Shown here: positions 10,778 through 46,171 of the stretch, in pieces | Numbering within the stretch: the stretch's first letter is position 1 | How the letters are laid out: each line of letters opens with the position of its first letter | Source of the DNA: an uncultured Parasporobacterium sp. | GTDB lineage: Bacteria > Bacillota > Clostridia > Lachnospirales > Lachnospiraceae | Assembly (NCBI GenBank): GCA_964528825.1 | Contig: CAZGVB010000001.1 | Span: 14,044 to 78,043 of the forward strand | Length of the DNA: 64,000 nucleotides | Direction of reading: 5' to 3' | Notes under the pieces: generated by a model | Databases searched by the model: none | What the model was told of the DNA's origin: nothing | The model's input: the letters and a program-made list of their open reading frames with translations, nothing else | Translations under genes and position numbers: made by a program

Positions 10778-12121
10778 ATGCAGACTGAAAAAAAAGTCCA
10801 TTATACACAAAAAAAATCGAATTTGACCGTTTGGATAGCTGTCTGCATATGTATACTTATATATCTGGTCATCCGGTTTATTAATTATGCAGATGATGGA
10901 GAAAATAAGCTTTATGAGGTGACCGCATCTTGGGCAGACAGCTATTCGAATATGCAATATACCGCACTCGCATTAAGAGAGGAAACGGTAGTCAGTTCCA
11001 ACAGCAGCGGTTATGTGAATTTTTTTGCCGCAGATGCGACACCCGTTAGTGTCGGCTCGAAAACATATGTAATAGATAAGAATGGAGAACTGTCATCAAG
11101 GCTTGCCGAAACAGGCACCAACCAAGCATTGCTTAACGAAAATGAGCTTGATGATATTAAAGATATAATTTTTGAAAATGACATTGTCTATGATAGAGAT
11201 TCATATTATGAAACTTATTCATTCAAGAATCAAGTTGAATCTCAGATATTAGATATAATCAACAGCAATGTCTTTGATGCTTTTGAAGGCAGTGATGATA
11301 CAGATTCGTATGACATATATTCATCGGATATTTCAGGTATAATTCTGCATAATGTTGATGGATTTGAACAATATTCGGCAGACAGCATCAGTGCGTCACT
11401 TTTCAGGAGAGAAAATTATAACAAAACTATAATCAAATCAAATGATCAAATTAAATCTGGCGATCCGGTATACAAAATAGTTACTTCTGAAGAATGGAAT
11501 TTGGTCATCCAATTGGATGATATTTCAAAATTCGAGGATTGCACCTATGTAACGATCCGGTTTTTAAAGGATGGAATAACAACTGAGGGTTCTTTTGAAA
11601 CAAAGACTGCTGCAGGAGTTAACTATGGCATAATCACATTGGACAAATATATGATCAGATATCTGTCTGACAGGTATCTGCAGATTCAGATTGATGGTGA
11701 TCAGGTGTCAGGTCTTAAAATACCTCAGACTGCTGTATGTGAAAAATATTTTTATCTTATTCCTGTTGAGTTTGCAACATCAGGCGGCAATTCTACCGGG
11801 ATCGGTTTTTTAAAGAAGAGTGATGATATCTCAGAATATGTCGACTGTGAGATACTTAAGGAAACGGAAAGCTATTATTATGTCGACACGAGCGTTTTTG
11901 ATGATGGAGATATCTTAATAAGGCCCGAGACTAATGATGAGTACAAAATAGGCGCTAAGGACGTGCTGCAGGGCGTATATCTTCTCTCGGGAAATGATTA
12001 TGTATTTGTTCCGATTGACATAATAAGCGAATCGAACGGTTATTATATTATCTCATCCGATGGAATACAGATATATGATCGGATATTGGAAGATGCCTCA
12101 GAAAAAAATGATCAAAGATAA
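10778..12121 (+). CDS. Membrane-anchored protein with HlyD/barrel-sandwich-like extracytoplasmic region (uncharacterised)
   Basis: A 447-aa ORF with one N-terminal TM (LTVWIAVCICILIYLVIRFI). Segments resemble membrane-fusion/lipoyl-like hairpins (ISGIILHNVDG..., IKSGDPVYKIVTSEEWNLVIQLD). The function is unknown. Confidence 0.55.
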   Translation: MQTEKKVHYTQKKSNLTVWIAVCICILIYLVIRFINYADDGENKLYEVTASWADSYSNMQYTALALREETVVSSNSSGYVNFFAADATPVSVGSKTYVIDKNGELSSRLAETGTNQALLNENELDDIKDIIFENDIVYDRDSYYETYSFKNQVESQILDIINSNVFDAFEGSDDTDSYDIYSSDISGIILHNVDGFEQYSADSISASLFRRENYNKTIIKSNDQIKSGDPVYKIVTSEEWNLVIQLDDISKFEDCTYVTIRFLKDGITTEGSFETKTAAGVNYGIITLDKYMIRYLSDRYLQIQIDGDQVSGLKIPQTAVCEKYFYLIPVEFATSGGNSTGIGFLKKSDDISEYVDCEILKETESYYYVDTSVFDDGDILIRPETNDEYKIGAKDVLQGVYLLSGNDYVFVPIDIISESNGYYIISSDGIQIYDRILEDASEKNDQR

Positions 12122-12821
12122 TTTGAATAAGATACAAGAGGATATTGATAAAGCATTAAAGAATAGCAAATATTCTCAAGATGTTACATTAGTAGCCGTA
12201 AGCAAAACACATACCGCAAGTGATATCTTGGCTGCATATGACAGTGGGATAAGGGATTTTGGTGAAAATAAGGTACAAGAACTGTTGAGTAAGGCAGATG
12301 TTCTTCCGCAGGATATACGATGGCATCTTATCGGTCACCTTCAAACAAATAAAGTAAAATCTATTATCGGTAAAGTTTATCTGATTCACTCAGTTGACTC
12401 GATAAAGCTCGCACAAATAATAGAAAATTATGCGGCCAAAGCAAATGTTACCGTAAATATACTTATTCAGGTTAATATTTCTCATGAGGAAAGCAAATTT
12501 GGAATAGATAGATCCGAACTTGCAGATATGCTATGGCAAATCTCGGCAATGCATCATATCAACGTCCTGGGATTGATGACGATCGCGCCGGAAACCGATA
12601 ATGCAGAAAATTGCAGACATGTTTTTCAAGAACTAAAAGAATTATCTATTGACATTGATTCTATGAATATTGATAATATACGTATGCAAATTTTGTCAAT
12701 GGGTATGAGTGGAGATTTTAAAGTAGCCATTGAAGAAGGCTCAACCATGGTCCGCATCGGCACAAGTATTTTCGGTGCCAGACAATATGCTAATAAAAGT
12801 GTTGGGAATAATAAGGAGTAG
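12108..12821 (+). CDS. yggS: YggS/YlmE family pyridoxal-phosphate homeostasis protein
   Basis: It has VTLVAVSKTH (PLP lysine), FGENKVQE, WHLIGHLQTNK, LSMGMSGDF and VRIGTSIFG motifs. I placed the start at ATG 12108, a short overlap with the upstream gene, rather than at 12060. Confidence 0.88.
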   Translation: MIKDNLNKIQEDIDKALKNSKYSQDVTLVAVSKTHTASDILAAYDSGIRDFGENKVQELLSKADVLPQDIRWHLIGHLQTNKVKSIIGKVYLIHSVDSIKLAQIIENYAAKANVTVNILIQVNISHEESKFGIDRSELADMLWQISAMHHINVLGLMTIAPETDNAENCRHVFQELKELSIDIDSMNIDNIRMQILSMGMSGDFKVAIEEGSTMVRIGTSIFGARQYANKSVGNNKE

Positions 12822-15036: not shown

Positions 15037-16299
15037 ATGAGCACAAAATCTTACCATGAACAATACAAGATTGATACCGAAATAAAGCTCAGGGAAAGAA
15101 TCAAGAGTCTTCCTGCTTTTTCTGCGGATTATTTCAGAGGCATTGAACCTGTAACATCCATACGTACACGTATGGCATATGCTTATGATCTTGGCATTTT
15201 CTTTGATTATTTGAAAAAAGAAACAAAATTATGCGGCCAAAATGACATATGTGATCTTAAGCTTTCGATTCTTGACAAAGTTACTCCGACGATCATCCAA
15301 GATTATCTTGATTATCTAAAGGTATACAATAGTCGTGATAATAATGAAAGATCCAATGGCGAACGCGGCTTGAACAGGAAACTTTCAAGTATTCGTTCTT
15401 TTTATAAATTTTTCTTTAATCTTGAGATGATCAAGACAAATCCGGCTGCGATTGTAAGAATGCCGAAGATACATCAAAAAAATATTATCAGACTGGAACA
15501 TGATGAGATCGGTGAGCTTCTTGATGAGGTTGAAAGCGGAAAGGATCTTACAAAGCATCAATCCGGATTTCACAAAAAAACAAAGGTCCGTGATATGGCT
15601 ATCCTTACTCTACTCCTTGGCACGGGAATAAGAGTTTCCGAATGTGTAGGCCTCGATATAAATGATATAGATCTGAAAAATCACGGTATACGCATCACCA
15701 GAAAAGGCGGCAATCAATCTGTTGTCTATTTCGGAGATGAGGTTGAAAAGGCACTGGTTGAATATTTAGAGGAGCGGAACAGAATTGTGCCCATGGAAGG
15801 CCATGAAAATGCTCTCTTCCTTTCCATTCAAAATCGCAGAATCTGCGTCAGATCTGTTGAAAATCTGGTTAAAAAATATTCCTGCCTTATTGTAAAACTA
15901 AAAAAAATAACGCCGCATAAGCTCAGAAGCACATATGGAACTCAGCTCTATAAGGAAACAGGTGATATTTATCTTGTCGCGGATGTCCTAGGCCATTCTG
16001 ATGTAAATACAACAAAAAAGCATTATGCAGCTATTGAGGATACACGAAGGCGCCTTGCCAGAAATGCCGTAACATTAAGAGATAATGCCGAAATATCGTC
16101 TGATAATACTGAAATATCGACAGGCGGCGCCGAAATATCGACTGATAATACTGAAATATCGACAAACAGTACCAAAACACCAATCTGTGATACTGAAATA
16201 TCGGACAAAAATGGCGAAAAATCAACCGATGATACAGTAAAATCAACCAATCATACTGATATATTGGCTGAAAATGCCGAAAAAAATGAGCAGCCATAA
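15037..16299 (+). CDS. XerC/XerD-like tyrosine recombinase with C-terminal heptad-repeat tail
   Basis: It has an N-terminal SAM-like core-binding domain. The catalytic R..HxxR..H..Y set is present (GTGIRVSE, HKLRSTYGT, LGHSDVNTTKKHY). A tail of about 70 aa made of DNTEIST-type repeats follows. Confidence 0.85.
   Translation: MSTKSYHEQYKIDTEIKLRERIKSLPAFSADYFRGIEPVTSIRTRMAYAYDLGIFFDYLKKETKLCGQNDICDLKLSILDKVTPTIIQDYLDYLKVYNSRDNNERSNGERGLNRKLSSIRSFYKFFFNLEMIKTNPAAIVRMPKIHQKNIIRLEHDEIGELLDEVESGKDLTKHQSGFHKKTKVRDMAILTLLLGTGIRVSECVGLDINDIDLKNHGIRITRKGGNQSVVYFGDEVEKALVEYLEERNRIVPMEGHENALFLSIQNRRICVRSVENLVKKYSCLIVKLKKITPHKLRSTYGTQLYKETGDIYLVADVLGHSDVNTTKKHYAAIEDTRRRLARNAVTLRDNAEISSDNTEISTGGAEISTDNTEISTNSTKTPICDTEISDKNGEKSTDDTVKSTNHTDILAENAEKNEQP
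16081..16290 (+). repeat. In-frame 21-nt (7-aa) tandem repeat array inside the recombinase 3' end
   Basis: GATAATGCCGAAATATCGTCT / GATAATACTGAAATATCGACA / GGCGGCGCCGAAATATCGACT / GATAATACTGAAATATCGACA are followed by progressively degenerate units. Confidence 0.85.
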
Positions 16300-21084: not shown

Positions 21085-22482
21085 TCATTTTATTGCATCA
21101 ATTTGCGGACTCCACTCCAATGTCTGGCTGCTGTCATAGAGATATCCGGTTATCATCCATGTAGGGATCAAATATCCGGTTTCCGAAATGAAAGAATAGC
21201 TTTCTTCTACACTTTCCACAACGGCTTTGCCCTGCCAATCACCGCAGCCTACCTCTTGAGCCACATCTATGCTGTCTGCCATGGAAATACATTGCACATC
21301 TTCGACATATTCGCACCAGATTCTGTTGTCGGAAATAGAAATAAGTCTCCCGTCCTTGCCGAGCTCGATCAACACATCCCCGCAAGTCTTAGTCATGCCG
21401 TCATCTGATGTTGCTATAAAATCAAAATAGTAATTGTCAGCGGAATAGTTCTCACTGCTATCGGCAACGTAAGCCACATCGGTATCTGATATCCCGAATT
21501 CGCTCATATAATCCCATGCATTTTGCAGCGCAGCAGATTCGTCGATCTCCTCGGAAACCGTCTTTTCGGTATCACCATACTCGTAATATACACTCCATTT
21601 GTTATATGGAAAGATAAAAATGACTTTGCTGTCACCGTCAAACAACGAATAATATGTTTCGTCTGATTGATTTTCTGTCCATTCGCCATCAAATTTTGTG
21701 ATCGACTGAAGCTTTTCTTCCAGATCACCAAGCGTAGTTTGCTCTGAGTATTGATAAACAGCTCGTTCTTTCTGCGTATCGTCAAGGCTGACCTTTATCT
21801 CTATTTCACTTGGAATCAAATGACCATAATAAAGATTGCCATATTTGGAAGAACCGTCGCAAAATTTCAAAGATATAAATACGGCAGTTATAAGAACAAT
21901 AAGCACAATGCCGACGGAAAGCCTCGGAAGGTACTTTGTAACAACAATGTCCCTACGGCTTATAACGTGTATCAATCCGATAACTATCAAGTACAGAGCG
22001 AAACCGCATAATCCGCCTACTGTATTGGCAATCACATCGTCAATATCAGTTCCTCTGTAAGATATCAGTTGAAGCAGCTCCGTTGCAACCGTGAAAGCTA
22101 AGGATACGATCAGCACACCATGCCAAGACCGCAATCTCTTAAATACGACAGGCAAAAGAAAACCAAGCGGTACAAACATGATGATATTCAGCAGAAATTG
22201 CCATACGCCGCTCGCATTATTTGAACCGTAGCGAAATGCAGTGATAAATTGTCTTAGCGGCGCAAGATTCATTCTGTCACCCATTCCGTTTCCGAAAGAC
22301 ATGACCTGCGTCACATAAATAAACATTACGACCCAACCGACCAACACAAATTCGGCAAGTATTGTTCTCTTGGCGGGCTTTTCTCTTTTCTTTTTAAGTA
22401 AAAAATAAATACCTATATATACAGCTGCAGTGACCACAAGTGCTATCGGTATTACGGGCAATAAACTTAAAATATAATTCAT
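21085..22482 (-). CDS. VanZ-family membrane protein with large extracytoplasmic C-terminal domain
   Basis: The VanZ signature is present (LLNIIMFVPLGFLLP...ELLQL...RGTDIDDVIANTVGG). I chose the start at ATG 22482 (AAGGA RBS). The track ORF extends to 22506. Confidence 0.7.
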   Translation of the reverse strand: MNYILSLLPVIPIALVVTAAVYIGIYFLLKKKREKPAKRTILAEFVLVGWVVMFIYVTQVMSFGNGMGDRMNLAPLRQFITAFRYGSNNASGVWQFLLNIIMFVPLGFLLPVVFKRLRSWHGVLIVSLAFTVATELLQLISYRGTDIDDVIANTVGGLCGFALYLIVIGLIHVISRRDIVVTKYLPRLSVGIVLIVLITAVFISLKFCDGSSKYGNLYYGHLIPSEIEIKVSLDDTQKERAVYQYSEQTTLGDLEEKLQSITKFDGEWTENQSDETYYSLFDGDSKVIFIFPYNKWSVYYEYGDTEKTVSEEIDESAALQNAWDYMSEFGISDTDVAYVADSSENYSADNYYFDFIATSDDGMTKTCGDVLIELGKDGRLISISDNRIWCEYVEDVQCISMADSIDVAQEVGCGDWQGKAVVESVEESYSFISETGYLIPTWMITGYLYDSSQTLEWSPQIDAIK

Positions 22483-22580
22483 AATTTTTTCCTTGTATTT
22501 CAGCAATAGTTATTTTTTTATTGAACCAAGATATTATACTCATTTCATGCTATACAGTCAAAAATTTCAAAATAAATTAA

Positions 22581-42510: not shown

Positions 42511-42987
42511 TTAATGCTGCTCTGCTCTTATAAGTCTATCACCTGAATAAATACAAGTCATTTCGTCAAAATCCCTGCCTTCAATAAGATATTCCAAAAA
42601 ATATCTGTCCCCTTCCCAGAGATTAAGTGACAGGACATCATGCTTATCTATCCAGCACAACTCGCCCTCATCGCATTCAAATGCATTTTTGTCAGCTGCC
42701 GGATCGTCCCCATCATATTCTGTTGCAGTGAAAAGATACATATCCTCATCATCAAGAACATCAGAGATAAAATGAACGACTCCGTGAAAATGATATTTCT
42801 TTAGCGTAAGTCCTGTCTCTTCATATACTTCTCTCATCAGACAGTCCGTCGAATCCTCTCCCGGCTCGAATTTGCCTCCGACGCCGACCCACTTGCCCTC
42901 ACTCGGATCATTCTTTTTTTTGTTTCTGAAAAGCATGAGAAAACGATCATTCTTTTCTATATAACATAATGTTGTCTTTTTTATCAT
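42511..42987 (-). CDS. Nudix hydrolase (MutT-like)
   Basis: The Nudix box GVGGKFEPGEDSTDCLMREVYEETGL is present. The start overlaps the stop of the upstream alr paralogue (ATGA). Confidence 0.8.
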   Translation of the reverse strand: MIKKTTLCYIEKNDRFLMLFRNKKKNDPSEGKWVGVGGKFEPGEDSTDCLMREVYEETGLTLKKYHFHGVVHFISDVLDDEDMYLFTATEYDGDDPAADKNAFECDEGELCWIDKHDVLSLNLWEGDRYFLEYLIEGRDFDEMTCIYSGDRLIRAEQH

Positions 42988-44195
42988 GAATTTATCTTTT
43001 TTCTTATATCAGGCATCGTATATCTATCATAAAAATATTCTTTAACACCAACGACCTCGCCGTCTTCAACATATATCCTGGGTACACGTTTCCCGATATT
43101 GCATACGATTTCATTTGCGCACGAATCTGCGATAGCCGCCATGTCATAAGCGGTTATCGATTGGGGATCTGCATTGCCTAACAAGATCACCTCATCACCA
43201 TTTTGCACATTTGGAATATCGGTTATATCGATCATCAATTGATCCATACATATTCTGCCTGTGATAGGCGCTTTATATCCTTTTACAAGCACATGTCCTT
43301 TATTTGACATATTTCTCATGTATCCATCAGCATATCCCACCGATACAGTAGCAATAACAGACTCCCTTTTTGTTTCATATGTTCCGCCATATCCTATTTT
43401 AGTGCCGGCGGGAACAGTCTTTATCATCACAATATGGCTGTATAAAGACATTGCGGGTCTGATATCGTACAAAGAGGCAATATCCGGAGAGCATAATCCG
43501 TAAATGATGCCGTCAAATCGAATCATATTTACATTTTTATATGGAAAATGCATCGTCAGATCATGAGCATAGATCTGCTTTATCGTAATATTTATATTGT
43601 TCTCTTCCAGCCGGCCGCATAATCTGTCGAAGCAATCGATTTCGCTGCAGATCGTTTCTTTCTCTGTCATGTCCATACAGGTATGAGGAAGCTCCAGATA
43701 CATTCCCTCAATATGTATATTGGGCATTTTGCTGACAGTGATAATATCACGGATCGTATCGTCGCCTAATTTAAATCCCGTCTGGTCATCATTAATGCAT
43801 ATCTTAATATGGACTAAAGCCGGATCATCAAGGCCCTCGGTTGCCCTGCTTATCATTTCTGCTGAATGAGTATCGCAAATCGTCATCCTTAAATGATTAT
43901 TTACTGCTGCCTTTACATCGTTCTCATCAATTCTTTCAAGTATGAGTACCGGAACTGTTATATTATGATCTATAAGATTGGATGCCTCCCGGGCCGTTGC
44001 TACCGCGATCATATCTATATGATTTTTTAATTTCTTTGCGATAGGTACAGCTCCATGTCCGAAGCCGTCGGCATTTAACATTATGCAGACAAGTACATCA
44101 TCCGGAAGAGTGTTTTTTATATTAGTTATATTTTTAAGTACTATACCCAGATCAACCTCGGCACGTACCCTGTGATAAATATAATTGTTATCCAT
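42984..44195 (-). CDS. Alanine racemase paralogue lacking the PLP-lysine set but retaining the trans-acting Tyr/CMD residues
   Basis: It shows the full-length Alr fold. IMLNADGFGHG replaces VVKANAYGHG, and the DTGMxR, THF and NSAA motifs are degenerate. IGYGGTY, GYADGY and GRICMDQLMIDITD are intact. Confidence 0.8.
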   Translation of the reverse strand: MDNNYIYHRVRAEVDLGIVLKNITNIKNTLPDDVLVCIMLNADGFGHGAVPIAKKLKNHIDMIAVATAREASNLIDHNITVPVLILERIDENDVKAAVNNHLRMTICDTHSAEMISRATEGLDDPALVHIKICINDDQTGFKLGDDTIRDIITVSKMPNIHIEGMYLELPHTCMDMTEKETICSEIDCFDRLCGRLEENNINITIKQIYAHDLTMHFPYKNVNMIRFDGIIYGLCSPDIASLYDIRPAMSLYSHIVMIKTVPAGTKIGYGGTYETKRESVIATVSVGYADGYMRNMSNKGHVLVKGYKAPITGRICMDQLMIDITDIPNVQNGDEVILLGNADPQSITAYDMAAIADSCANEIVCNIGKRVPRIYVEDGEVVGVKEYFYDRYTMPDIRKKINS

Positions 44196-44212
44196 ATGGT
44201 AAAAAATCCTTA

Positions 44213-45427
44213 TTAATGTGCATGAACCATGCCTGCATGCTTATTTATAGGTATATATTTGTCATAAAAATAGTCTTTATGACATACTTCCACGCCATCG
44301 GCATAATATATTCTTGGGACTCTCTTGCTGATATCACAGGCGAATTCATAATTAAATGAGCCAGCAAGCTCTGAAATCTCCTCCATGGTGATATTCTCAT
44401 CATTACTTTTGCCGACCAAAACGACCTCATCACCGACATTAACACCAGGAATATCTGTTATATCGATCATAAAATGGTCCATATCTATATTGCCTATAAT
44501 GTCTGCCCTTTTTCCTTTAACCAAAACATAGCCTTTATTTGAAAGACTTCTCTTATATCCATCCGCATAGCCTGTATCGACTGCCGCAATGCGCATATCG
44601 CCTCTTGCATTATGTCCAGTCGTGCAGCCGGGAATATTTTCAATATTTGTTTGCCTTATGAAGCTTATATGACTGAATAAAGACATTGCACCTTTAAGTG
44701 CAACCTGATGAACACATTCGGATGGATAAAGGCCGTATATCGATATACCTAGCCTCACCATATCCATATTTGCTCTTCTAAAAACCGTTGCTGCTGCACT
44801 GTTGGAGCAGTGCTTGATCTTGAAATGAATATCCTTTGCTTCCAGATCGTCGCAGACCTTTTTAAAAAGTGCAAACTGTCTGTCAAATTCCTCGGTATCT
44901 TCGCAATCCGCCTTGGAAAAATGTGTATATATCCCCTCAACATCTATAAAATCCATATTGCAGATTTTTTCAATATCTCTATAGCTTTCCTGACACGGTG
45001 AAAATCCGATTCTGCTCATACCTGTGTCAATCTTAATATGGACCTTTGCAGGGCCCTCACCCAGGTCCTTAGCAAATTCGTTGATTCTTTTGGCTGTTTC
45101 GACGTCAAATACAGTAAGTCTGAAGCCGTTCCTTACCGAATACATAGTATAATCGGTATGAATATATCCGAGGATAAGTATCGGCTTATTTATATCATGG
45201 TTTCGCAGATTGGATGCTTCATCAAATGTCGCGACCGCAAAGAAATCCACATCATCTTCAATTGTTTTTGCGACCGGCACGGCACCGTGTCCATATGCGT
45301 CTGCTTTGATGACAGCACATACCTTTGTTTTTTTATCTAAATTACTTTTTATATTATTTATATTTTCTTTGATTGCATCAAGATCTATCTTTGCATATGT
45401 CCTGCTGTAAATCGTTTCATCGCTCAT
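44213..45427 (-). CDS. alr: Alanine racemase paralogue retaining the PLP-binding barrel residues but lacking the catalytic Tyr segment
   Basis: VIKADAYGHG, DTGMSRIG, YTHFSKAD, CSNSAA, MVRLGISIYG and FNYE are present. The Tyr265-equivalent segment reads PGCTTGHNARGDMRIAAVDT (no Tyr), and RICMDQ reads NIDMDH. Confidence 0.85.
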   Translation of the reverse strand: MSDETIYSRTYAKIDLDAIKENINNIKSNLDKKTKVCAVIKADAYGHGAVPVAKTIEDDVDFFAVATFDEASNLRNHDINKPILILGYIHTDYTMYSVRNGFRLTVFDVETAKRINEFAKDLGEGPAKVHIKIDTGMSRIGFSPCQESYRDIEKICNMDFIDVEGIYTHFSKADCEDTEEFDRQFALFKKVCDDLEAKDIHFKIKHCSNSAAATVFRRANMDMVRLGISIYGLYPSECVHQVALKGAMSLFSHISFIRQTNIENIPGCTTGHNARGDMRIAAVDTGYADGYKRSLSNKGYVLVKGKRADIIGNIDMDHFMIDITDIPGVNVGDEVVLVGKSNDENITMEEISELAGSFNYEFACDISKRVPRIYYADGVEVCHKDYFYDKYIPINKHAGMVHAH

Positions 45428-45444: not shown

Positions 45445-46095
45445 TTATATTTGATCTTCCGCACTTCTTTGCCCTATCTCAAATGACAACTCCAGCAATG
45501 AATCCAGCAAATGAACATTTTTTACATTTGCATCGGCAGGCAATTCAAGTTCAGTATGAGCAAAATTCCAAAAGTTCCTTATGCCGCATCTGTAAAGGTC
45601 ACTTGTAAGCTCCTTTGCAACCTCCTTCGGAACAGTAATAACAGCGATATCGACCTCGTTTTCTTTGACATATTGTTTGATATCGTTGTCAGACAATATA
45701 TTCAATCCTGAAATCTTTTTGCCTATGATATTTTCATCTGTATCGAAGGCACTTTTAAATAAAAAGCCATGCTCCGCAAATCCCCTGTAATTTACTAAGG
45801 CCCTTCCCAGATTGCCGGCACCGAGCAAGATCATATTGTGCGGTCTGTCGGCACCCAGGATTCTTCCTATTTCTTTATGAAGATTTTTTACATTATATCC
45901 GTAGCCTTGCTGTCCGAAGCCACCGAAGTTATTCAGATCCTGCCTTATCTGTGATGCAGTAAAATGCATCCGTCTGCTGAGCTCTTCAGATGATACCCGT
46001 TCTGTACCCTCGTCCATGATCTCCTTAAGATACCTGTGATATGCAGGCAGCCTGGAAATAACAGCTTTCGATATTTTCTTTTTACTATCGTCCAT
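45445..46095 (-). CDS. rex: Redox-sensing transcriptional repressor Rex
   Basis: The N-terminal winged helix is present (ISRLPAYHRYL...SSEELS...ASQIRQDLNNFGGFGQQGYGYNV), together with a Rossmann GAGNLG motif. Confidence 0.9.
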   Translation of the reverse strand: MDDSKKKISKAVISRLPAYHRYLKEIMDEGTERVSSEELSRRMHFTASQIRQDLNNFGGFGQQGYGYNVKNLHKEIGRILGADRPHNMILLGAGNLGRALVNYRGFAEHGFLFKSAFDTDENIIGKKISGLNILSDNDIKQYVKENEVDIAVITVPKEVAKELTSDLYRCGIRNFWNFAHTELELPADANVKNVHLLDSLLELSFEIGQRSAEDQI

Positions 46096-46142: not shown

Positions 46143-46171
46143 ATTATAGTTATGTATAAAAATATGTTCAA
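46143..46171 (-). promoter_or_regulatory. Putative sigma-A promoter of the rex-alr-alr operon
   Basis: On the minus strand, TTGAAC (46166-46171), a 17-nt spacer, then TATAAT (46143-46148). It lies about 45 nt upstream of the rex ATG. Confidence 0.55.

Follow-up and report, generated by a model that had tools for sequence, protein, structure and literature searches.

Reciprocal loss of active-site halves in tandem alanine racemase paralogues of an uncultured Parasporobacterium predicts a heterodimer with a single live pocket

Within a 64,000-nt stretch of DNA from an uncultured Parasporobacterium sp. of the Lachnospiraceae (hereafter the window; positions 14,044-78,043 of contig CAZGVB010000001.1, assembly GCA_964528825.1), two adjacent alanine racemase (Alr) genes, here called alrA and alrB, encode proteins that have lost opposite halves of the active site. 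We assign a probability of roughly 70% to the reading that AlrA and AlrB are duplicates of the housekeeping alr that degenerated in complementary fashion and would now form a heterodimer with one live and one dead pocket. Textbooks present Alr as a symmetric homodimer, it has long served as a target of antibiotics (cycloserine), and automated annotation names both genes 'alanine racemase'. The initial annotation of this DNA had predicted a heterodimer from reciprocal half-site loss, and that prediction now finds support in skewed domain divergence, in the pattern of selection between strains and in duplication at the ancestral locus. Formation of the heterodimer, its racemase activity and the mutual dependence of the two genes are properties that we infer from these sequence patterns.

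Characterised Alr enzymes are homodimers with two equivalent sites (e.g. PMC3245724), and racemisation involves two bases on opposite faces of the aldimine: the barrel supplies Lys39 and the partner subunit supplies Tyr265', which His166 and Arg219 tune (PMC6411801, PMC3245724). We assigned residues to the cis and trans halves of the site following the Staphylococcus aureus Alr structure (PMC3245724), in which Tyr43, Ser204, Tyr354, Arg219, His166/168 and His200 are cis residues and Tyr265', Tyr284' and Arg290' come from the second monomer. Positions were mapped by HMMER alignments to the Clostridioides difficile and Geobacillus stearothermophilus enzymes and by a MAFFT alignment of 225 sequences numbered on 1L6F, which included AlrA, AlrB and 222 canonical relatives; the G. 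stearothermophilus reference (residues 5-377) was rebuilt from its HMMER alignment to 1L6F.

This mapping revealed mirror-image losses in the two proteins. AlrB carries K39N, Y43F, D131C, M134D, R136Q, H166E, H200Q, N203A, S204H, G221D, I222G and Y354N on the side that binds pyridoxal 5'-phosphate (PLP), where it retains K129, D171 and R219, and it keeps every trans residue (Y265, Y284, R290, R309, C311, M312, D313 and Q314). In AlrA the cis set is complete, and the changes are Y265C, T279A, R309N, C311D and Q314H. The motifs on which the initial annotation relied are all borne out by the alignment, both in AlrA (VIKADAYGHG, DTGMSRIG, YTHFSKAD, CSNSAA, MVRLG and FNYE) and in AlrB (IMLNADGFGHG, MYLELPH, YAHDLT, ANE and IGYGGTY), as is the change of RICMDQ to NIDMDH in AlrA (R309N, C311D, Q314H). 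Its central residue assignments likewise hold in the hidden Markov model (HMM) alignments, with no Lys at position 39 of AlrB (Asn41) and no Tyr at position 265 of AlrA (Cys268). One detail has to be corrected: the Tyr265 loop of AlrA had been described as 4-5 residues shorter than normal, but the segment equivalent to G. stearothermophilus residues 250-283 is exactly 34 residues long in AlrA, in AlrB and in 222/222 canonical relatives, so that the alignment is ungapped and Cys268 falls at the Tyr265 position. As AlrA has TGC where its nearest relatives have TAC, the tyrosine was replaced by cysteine through a single transition, with no gap. Lys39 and Tyr265 occur together on one polypeptide in 222/222 relatives and in neither AlrA nor AlrB; by prediction, a complete set of cis and trans residues would come together only in one pocket of an AlrA/AlrB heterodimer.

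The pattern is far from random. Across the 222 canonical relatives we defined 54 invariant columns (at least 97% invariance), 31 in the N-domain and 23 in the C-terminal part, of which canonical members break a mean of 0.23 and a maximum of 3. AlrB breaks 15 of the 31 N-domain columns and a single one of the 23 C-terminal columns, and that single break is Y354N, functionally a cis phosphate ligand. AlrA breaks none of the 31 barrel columns and four of the 23 C-terminal ones (Y265C, T279A, C311D and Q314H), all on the trans side. The difference in N-domain breaks between AlrA and AlrB is significant (p = 6e-6, Fisher test). The reciprocal loss is real and goes beyond chance. In a head-to-tail AlrA/AlrB dimer, all substitutions would map to one pocket, formed by the AlrB barrel and the AlrA C-domain, and the other pocket, formed by the AlrA barrel and the AlrB C-domain, is canonical at each position examined. 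Such clustering is predicted by a heterodimer and not by independent decay of two genes.

Evolutionary rates point in the same direction on two timescales. For deep time, we calculated the identity to relatives in the C-domain minus that in the N-domain, which is 0.093 +/- 0.025 for the 222 canonical Alr proteins (range 0.026-0.152). AlrA, at -0.003, lies below all 222, and AlrB, at +0.218, lies above all 222, indicating that the AlrA C-domain and the AlrB barrel, the two halves of the predicted dead pocket, both evolved unusually fast. For recent time, a cluster look-up traced both proteins, in variant form, to a 226-kb ENA contig (locus L085) with the same gene order and a synonymous divergence (dS) of ~0.06-0.18 from the window strain; a third assembly (L001) represents the window strain itself, with 3 mismatches in 21 kb. 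Both open reading frames (ORFs) are intact in these three independent assemblies.

We then compared the window strain (and L001) with L085 by the Nei-Gojobori method, counting nonsynonymous (Nd) and synonymous (Sd) differences and their rate ratio (omega). For AlrA the overall values are Nd 12, Sd 27 and omega 0.105, divided into a slowly evolving barrel (Nd 3, Sd 9, omega 0.08) and a C-domain with Nd 9, Sd 16 and omega 0.13. For AlrB (overall Nd 16, Sd 15, omega 0.28) the order is reversed, with a barrel at omega 0.52 (Nd 12, Sd 6) and a C-domain at omega 0.04 (Nd 1, Sd 7); neighbouring genes range from 0.01 to 0.20. This crossed distribution of nonsynonymous changes (AlrA 3 in the N-domain and 9 in the C-domain; AlrB 12 and 1) is significant (p = 0.001, Fisher test). 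Purifying selection is thus strong on the AlrB C-domain and the AlrA barrel and relaxed on the AlrB barrel, and the direction of the recent rates agrees with the deep-time pattern. The two strains agree at every catalytic position of both proteins. One change in AlrA of L085, R293K, falls on the entryway position R290, where 222/222 relatives show no variation.

Both proteins remain Alr-like along their entire length. PF01168 (Ala_racemase_N) and PF00842 (Ala_racemase_C) match each of them full length, and both exceed the 168-bit cut-off of the alr equivalog model TIGR00492 (scores in Table 1). Both fall below the cut-offs of the VanT-G model (AlrA 307 and AlrB 254 bits; cut-off 460), of NF009879 for the PRK13340 subfamily (176 and 165 bits; cut-off 434) and of the DadX model; on the Orr model (NF040742; cut-off 480 bits) AlrA scores 29 bits and AlrB gives no match. 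Their hydrophilic N-termini line up with the beginning of cytoplasmic Alr, with no signal peptide in either protein and no membrane or signal N-terminus of the VanT type. The closest solved structures are the Alr enzymes of C. difficile (4LUS/4LUY) and Thermoanaerobacter tengcongensis (4Y2W); identity to solved Alr structures is 33-45%, and AlrA and AlrB are 39% identical to each other. An AlphaFold2 model of AlrB, built from a 56-sequence alignment, reaches a mean predicted local distance difference test score (pLDDT) of 91 and a predicted template modelling score (pTM) of 0.88, with confidence dipping only at the degenerate active-site loops (~residues 171-180 and 211-220), and Foldseek matches it to solved Alr structures (4Y2W/4LUS) with template modelling (TM) scores of 0.89-0.92. 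The model is a confident and complete Alr fold, so AlrB is no remnant but an Alr-like protein that is full-length and folded. The pair is therefore Alr by sequence and fold, yet lacks the defining feature of both bases on one polypeptide.

Taken together with the rates, these observations suggest what the conserved half of AlrB is for. AlrA tolerates the loss of trans residues, which shows that folding does not require them. In AlrB the PLP lysine and ten further residues of the barrel are gone, whereas the C-domain is under the strong constraint described above; trans residues that are dispensable for folding and still strictly kept in a protein with a dead barrel would serve the barrel of a partner, for which AlrA is the only candidate in view. 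The two genes lie in one apparent operon, so their products would be made together. Head-to-tail assembly of AlrA and AlrB would then give a heterodimer with two unlike pockets. In the first, built from the AlrA barrel and the AlrB C-domain, AlrA would contribute PLP, Lys41, Arg139, His169, Arg225 and Tyr360, and AlrB would contribute Tyr269, Tyr288, Arg294, Arg314 and Cys316-Met317-Asp318, giving a complete canonical site with AlrA Lys41 and AlrB Tyr269 as the two bases. The second pocket, built from the AlrB barrel and the AlrA C-domain, would hold all of the substitutions and is expected to be unable to bind PLP. By the same logic, AlrB homodimers should be inert and devoid of PLP, and AlrA homodimers should bind PLP and lack the base on the L face.

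The genomic context points to a duplication within this lineage. The nearest relatives of AlrA (P0002, P0121, P0003 and P0122) are 403-aa proteins of 61-62% identity that are fully canonical, and their loci carry a single alr followed by recA. These loci share the upstream neighbourhood of alrA, with genes for an alpha/beta hydrolase, a PHP protein, an ABC-F protein, BD-FAE and Maf (plus Rex in L004, where the order Maf-Rex-Alr also occurs). From this shared synteny AlrA is the positional orthologue of the relatives' single canonical alr, which places the duplication that gave rise to the pair inside this lineage. AlrB also carries, in common with AlrA, the clade-specific C-terminal extension (K/V)(D/E)YFYD(R/K)Y plus tail. 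Tandem duplication in the lineage followed by complementary loss would be the simplest history, and for the outcome neutral entrenchment following the duplication is a simpler explanation than adaptive design. We also observed that synteny with the nearest relatives (L002, L004) ends exactly at the 3' end of alr, where the relatives continue with recA and fusA and this lineage continues with alrB, NUDIX, DUF3048, rmuC, aldehyde dehydrogenase, YfhO, rpsB and tsf genes; a rearrangement may have accompanied the duplication.

Searches for further pairs placed this arrangement in a single species-level lineage. An indexed search of 5.8 billion clusters for AlrB-like proteins returned only the identical protein and then canonical Alr at no more than 44% identity, and the best matches from exhaustively searching 1.84 billion representatives with HMMER reached 36-38% identity; overall, no AlrB-like protein was found outside the same species among ~15 billion proteins. 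When one genome of each GTDB species was scanned, nothing exceeded 37% identity to AlrB among the matches listed. Among the best 150 HMMER matches, a comparably degenerate barrel occurs only in one protein, P0240, and among 86 fetched loci two Alr ORFs occur in tandem only in the two strains of this lineage. Among named organisms, the nearest relatives are metagenome-assembled genomes of Lachnospiraceae from animal guts.

Several points weigh against the heterodimer. The association and activity of AlrA and AlrB are predictions from sequence, and the strain comparison draws on small counts, with 12-16 nonsynonymous changes per gene. In a neighbour-joining tree AlrB is sister to AlrA on a branch ~2.5 times longer, with a bootstrap of only 42% for the sister relationship in this distance tree, a weakness that follows from the very long AlrB branch. 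The pair is found in one species-level lineage (two strains) only and so offers no broad co-evolutionary signal; it is not spread across Clostridia. A third canonical alr, or a Dat or MurI route to D-alanine, may exist elsewhere in the genome and make the pair non-essential; a third canonical alr would weaken the obligateness of the pair at the level of the cell, and not the case for the heterodimer. Finally, AlrA has a Cys at the Tyr265 position, and, by analogy with the thiol acid/base of the fold-III racemase OrnR (PMC13397332), AlrA homodimers may have some activity of their own.

This last point leads to the alternative that AlrA alone is a homodimeric racemase or other PLP enzyme working through Cys268 (or the nearby His272), with AlrB in a non-catalytic role such as regulation, which we consider unlikely. 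The cysteine sits at the Tyr265 position without a gap and is kept in both strains, and OrnR, which lacks the catalytic Tyr and has His166 replaced by Asn, does employ a Cys/Lys pair (PMC13397332). Moreover, Y265A/S variants of Alr lose racemisation, retain D-specific transamination and acquire an aldolase activity (PMC13397332, PMC6411801), so that a Tyr-less dimer could differ in chemistry; the engineered Y265A enzyme, as summarised in PMC6411801 from Seebeck and Hilvert (2003), largely lost racemisation and gained aldolase activity, and resembles the predicted AlrA homodimer in having an intact barrel without Tyr265, except that it is a laboratory mutant. The OrnR cysteine, however, is not at position 265; it lies in the same subunit, on a loop of the barrel, where the aligned residue is Thr169 in G. 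stearothermophilus Alr and Lys in AlrA. AlrA keeps His166 and lacks that Cys (YTHFSKAD). With a different loop, a different subunit and a score of 29 bits against the 480-bit Orr cut-off, we rejected an OrnR-type cysteine as an explanation of Cys268 by homology, keeping it as a weak alternative on mechanistic grounds. AlrA has also lost C311, Q314, R309 and T279, plus R290 in the second strain, and the loop around Cys268 varies between strains (T270S, A274T), which looks like general relaxation and not like a redesigned base. On geometry alone, a Cys side chain is ~4 Å shorter than that of Tyr. Above all, catalysis by AlrA on its own leaves unexplained why AlrB retains all trans catalytic and entryway residues under such strong constraint.

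We regard as rather improbable the alternative that the pair is redundant debris drifting towards loss, with a third canonical alr elsewhere supplying D-alanine. It is compatible with the restriction of the pair to one lineage, with P0240, likewise an Alr with a degenerate barrel, being a singleton, and with the extent of our view of Alr, namely the 64-kb window, which holds just AlrA and AlrB as Alr-like proteins beside one YggS-type single-domain protein, and in which no ddl, murF, dat or murI was found. Against it, the ORFs are intact in all three assemblies even though the AlrB barrel is down to ~30-35% identity, the omega values of both genes are low, with the AlrB C-domain constrained like neighbouring housekeeping genes, and synteny places AlrA where the relatives have their single alr; nor would decay spare exactly complementary halves, and a third alr would leave the reciprocal constraint unexplained.

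That the heterodimer acts on a substrate other than alanine, as a broad-spectrum or other amino-acid racemase, which the initial annotation had raised because an unusual architecture might go with a new function, is very improbable and finds no support, since, despite a few entryway differences in AlrA (A172 to Cys, I352 to Phe), Phe at 352 is the majority state (166/222 relatives), position 172 is variable, the model scores and missing signal peptides argue against the VanT, NF009879 and Orr groups, and the predicted live pocket is canonical for alanine throughout (K39, Y43, K129, R136, H166, R219 and Y354 from AlrA; Y265, Y284, R290, R309, C311, M312 and D313 from AlrB).

Returning to the heterodimer of one live and one dead pocket, a stronger version can be entertained, in which the pair is the cell's only Alr and an obligate heterodimer, and in addition either the dead pocket has been repurposed as a regulatory or metal/ligand site or AlrA homodimers carry out a second PLP chemistry of aldolase or transaminase type, yielding two enzymes per pair; this we hold to be an outside chance. 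The degenerate pocket is lined by C133, D136, Q138, E168, H211 and D228 of AlrB and by C268, D315 and H318 of AlrA.

In the literature searched, we found no described natural alanine racemase that is heterodimeric or dependent on a pseudoenzyme. Compared with canonical homodimeric Alr/DadX (1SFT/1L6F; 4LUS), the pair has the same two-domain fold and a composite pocket with every canonical catalytic, PLP-binding and entryway residue, but neither protein holds both bases, and two symmetric sites from one gene would be replaced by one live and one dead pocket from two genes. Among systems backed by experiment, the nearest in mechanism is trypanosomatid deoxyhypusine synthase (DHS), whose dead paralogue (DHSp) was shown experimentally to activate it 3000-fold (PMC3663545). 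There too an enzyme with active sites at an interface was duplicated, leaving a dead and an impaired paralogue whose activity depends on the hetero-oligomer, although the DHS system is eukaryotic, NAD-dependent and of an unrelated fold, and its association is experimental where that of the Alr pair is predicted (PMC3663545). Like DHS/DHSp, AlrA and AlrB are paralogues from an interface-site homo-oligomer family and include a catalytically dead subunit under purifying selection; unlike those of DHS/DHSp, the Alr losses are cleanly reciprocal, falling on the cis half in one protein and on the trans half in the other. Serine palmitoyltransferase LCB1/LCB2 (SPTLC1/2) is another PLP enzyme with interface sites, in which a subunit without the PLP lysine contributes to its partner's site; it differs from the Alr pair in being of fold type I and eukaryotic. 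Within fold type III, to which Alr belongs, mixed dimers of the ornithine decarboxylase mutants K69A and C360A reportedly regain one active site (a literature search gave no match for this), although those heterodimers are laboratory constructs.

If the heterodimer is real, it would be a clean bacterial case of duplication and complementary degeneration turning a homomer into an obligate heteromer, by constructive neutral evolution or by subfunctionalisation at the level of the interface. Because the ancestral state is kept in close relatives at the same locus, the route would be reconstructable and testable by ancestral resurrection. It would also constitute a natural half-of-sites Alr, bearing on communication between sites and on the structural role of a PLP-free barrel. 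As both proteins pass the equivalog model, whole-protein HMM cut-offs miss split active sites of this kind.

The coordinates of the locus are collected in Table 1.

Table 1. Features of the alr locus, in window coordinates.
Feature	Position	Strand	Basis
rex, gene for the redox-sensing repressor, at the head of the apparent operon	45445..46095	-	PF06971 + PF02629
alrA, 404-aa Alr paralogue, PLP barrel (cis half) intact, trans half degenerate	44213..45427	-	TIGR00492, 349 bits
alrB, 403-aa Alr paralogue, PLP barrel degenerate, trans half intact	42984..44195	-	TIGR00492, 269 bits
alrA-alrB spacer, 17 nt, with AAGGA ribosome-binding site	44196..44212	-	direct sequence reading
NUDIX hydrolase gene, 4-nt overlap with alrB stop	42511..42987	-	ORF list and domain match
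Sigma-70-like promoter match TTGAAC-17-TATAAT upstream of rex	46143..46171	-	10/12 consensus matches (a consensus match only, which says nothing on function)
AlrA Lys41 codon (= K39, PLP Schiff-base lysine), kept	45305..45307	-	alignment
AlrA Cys268 codon TGC at the catalytic Tyr265 position	44624..44626	-	ungapped alignment
AlrA NIDMDH replacing R(I/V)CMDQ (R309N, C311D, Q314H)	44474..44491	-	alignment
AlrB Asn41 codon at the PLP lysine (K39) position	44073..44075	-	alignment
AlrB Tyr269 codon (= catalytic Tyr265), kept	43389..43391	-	alignment
AlrB RICMDQ (R309-Q314), fully canonical trans motif	43239..43256	-	alignment

The tandem arrangement first noted for the two genes, with its ribosome-binding site and its place downstream of rex, checks out in ORF coordinates, spacer and Rex domains. 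The minus-strand gene set in the window comprises rex, alrA, alrB, a NUDIX gene, a DUF3048 lipoprotein gene and rmuC. The spacer between the rex stop and the alrA start is also 17 nt, TAAGGA sits 11 nt before the alrB ATG, the alrA and alrB ORFs are in different reading frames, and a scan between alrA and alrB found no convincing terminator; rex-alrA-alrB-nudix thus appears to form one operon, in which the NUDIX gene is probably co-transcribed with alrB. The overlap of alrB and the NUDIX gene (ATGA, 42984-42987) is absent from strain L085, which has a 55-nt gap instead (L085:11203-11259). AlrB is 400 aa long in L085, with the window-strain alrB stopping 3 codons later, and ORF calling makes the NUDIX gene of L085 shorter by 17 codons than that of the window strain. 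The most variable part of both Alr copies is the C-terminal tail past YFYD(R/K)Y.

Two other unusual Alr homologues came to light in the searches. P0240, at L086:637-1782 (Logan SRR28148261 contig _16), is an unrelated Alr homologue whose barrel is heavily degenerate: R136, H166, H200, N203, S204, R219, G221 and Y354 are replaced, K39 and Y43 are kept and the trans set is fully canonical. Its gene lies directly upstream of a hexapeptide acetyltransferase gene and dltA-dltB-dltC-dltD, with no partner alr adjacent to it at the locus. A homology search showed P0240 to be a singleton among canonical nearest relatives (57% identity), so that, lacking an adjacent partner as well, it does not define a family; it may be an independent half-dead Alr borrowing the barrel of another Alr, or a decaying copy. 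P0249, a 763-aa protein from the HMMER search, is a natural fusion of two Alr-like modules, with K39, Y43, R219 and Y354 in both halves, H166, Y265, C311 and M312 in neither, and D313 in the first half only, and belongs to the fold-III family as a distant double-domain protein that is uncharacterised.

Elsewhere in the window, the YggS-type gene (12060-12821, +) encodes a 253-aa protein with Ala_racemase_N only, of the YggS/PLPBP type associated with PLP homeostasis, which has no C-terminal domain and is not an Alr; it lies downstream of a mreB-mreC-PBP2-rodA cell-shape cluster and a HlyD-like gene. Further along (15037-16299, +, and 21085-22506, -), a tyrosine-recombinase (phage integrase family) gene precedes a gene of the Y_phosphatase3 family, a sensor kinase paired with a response regulator, and a VanZ-like protein. 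The sign of the guanine-cytosine (GC) skew changes near 16 kb, and this may be the boundary of an integrated element.

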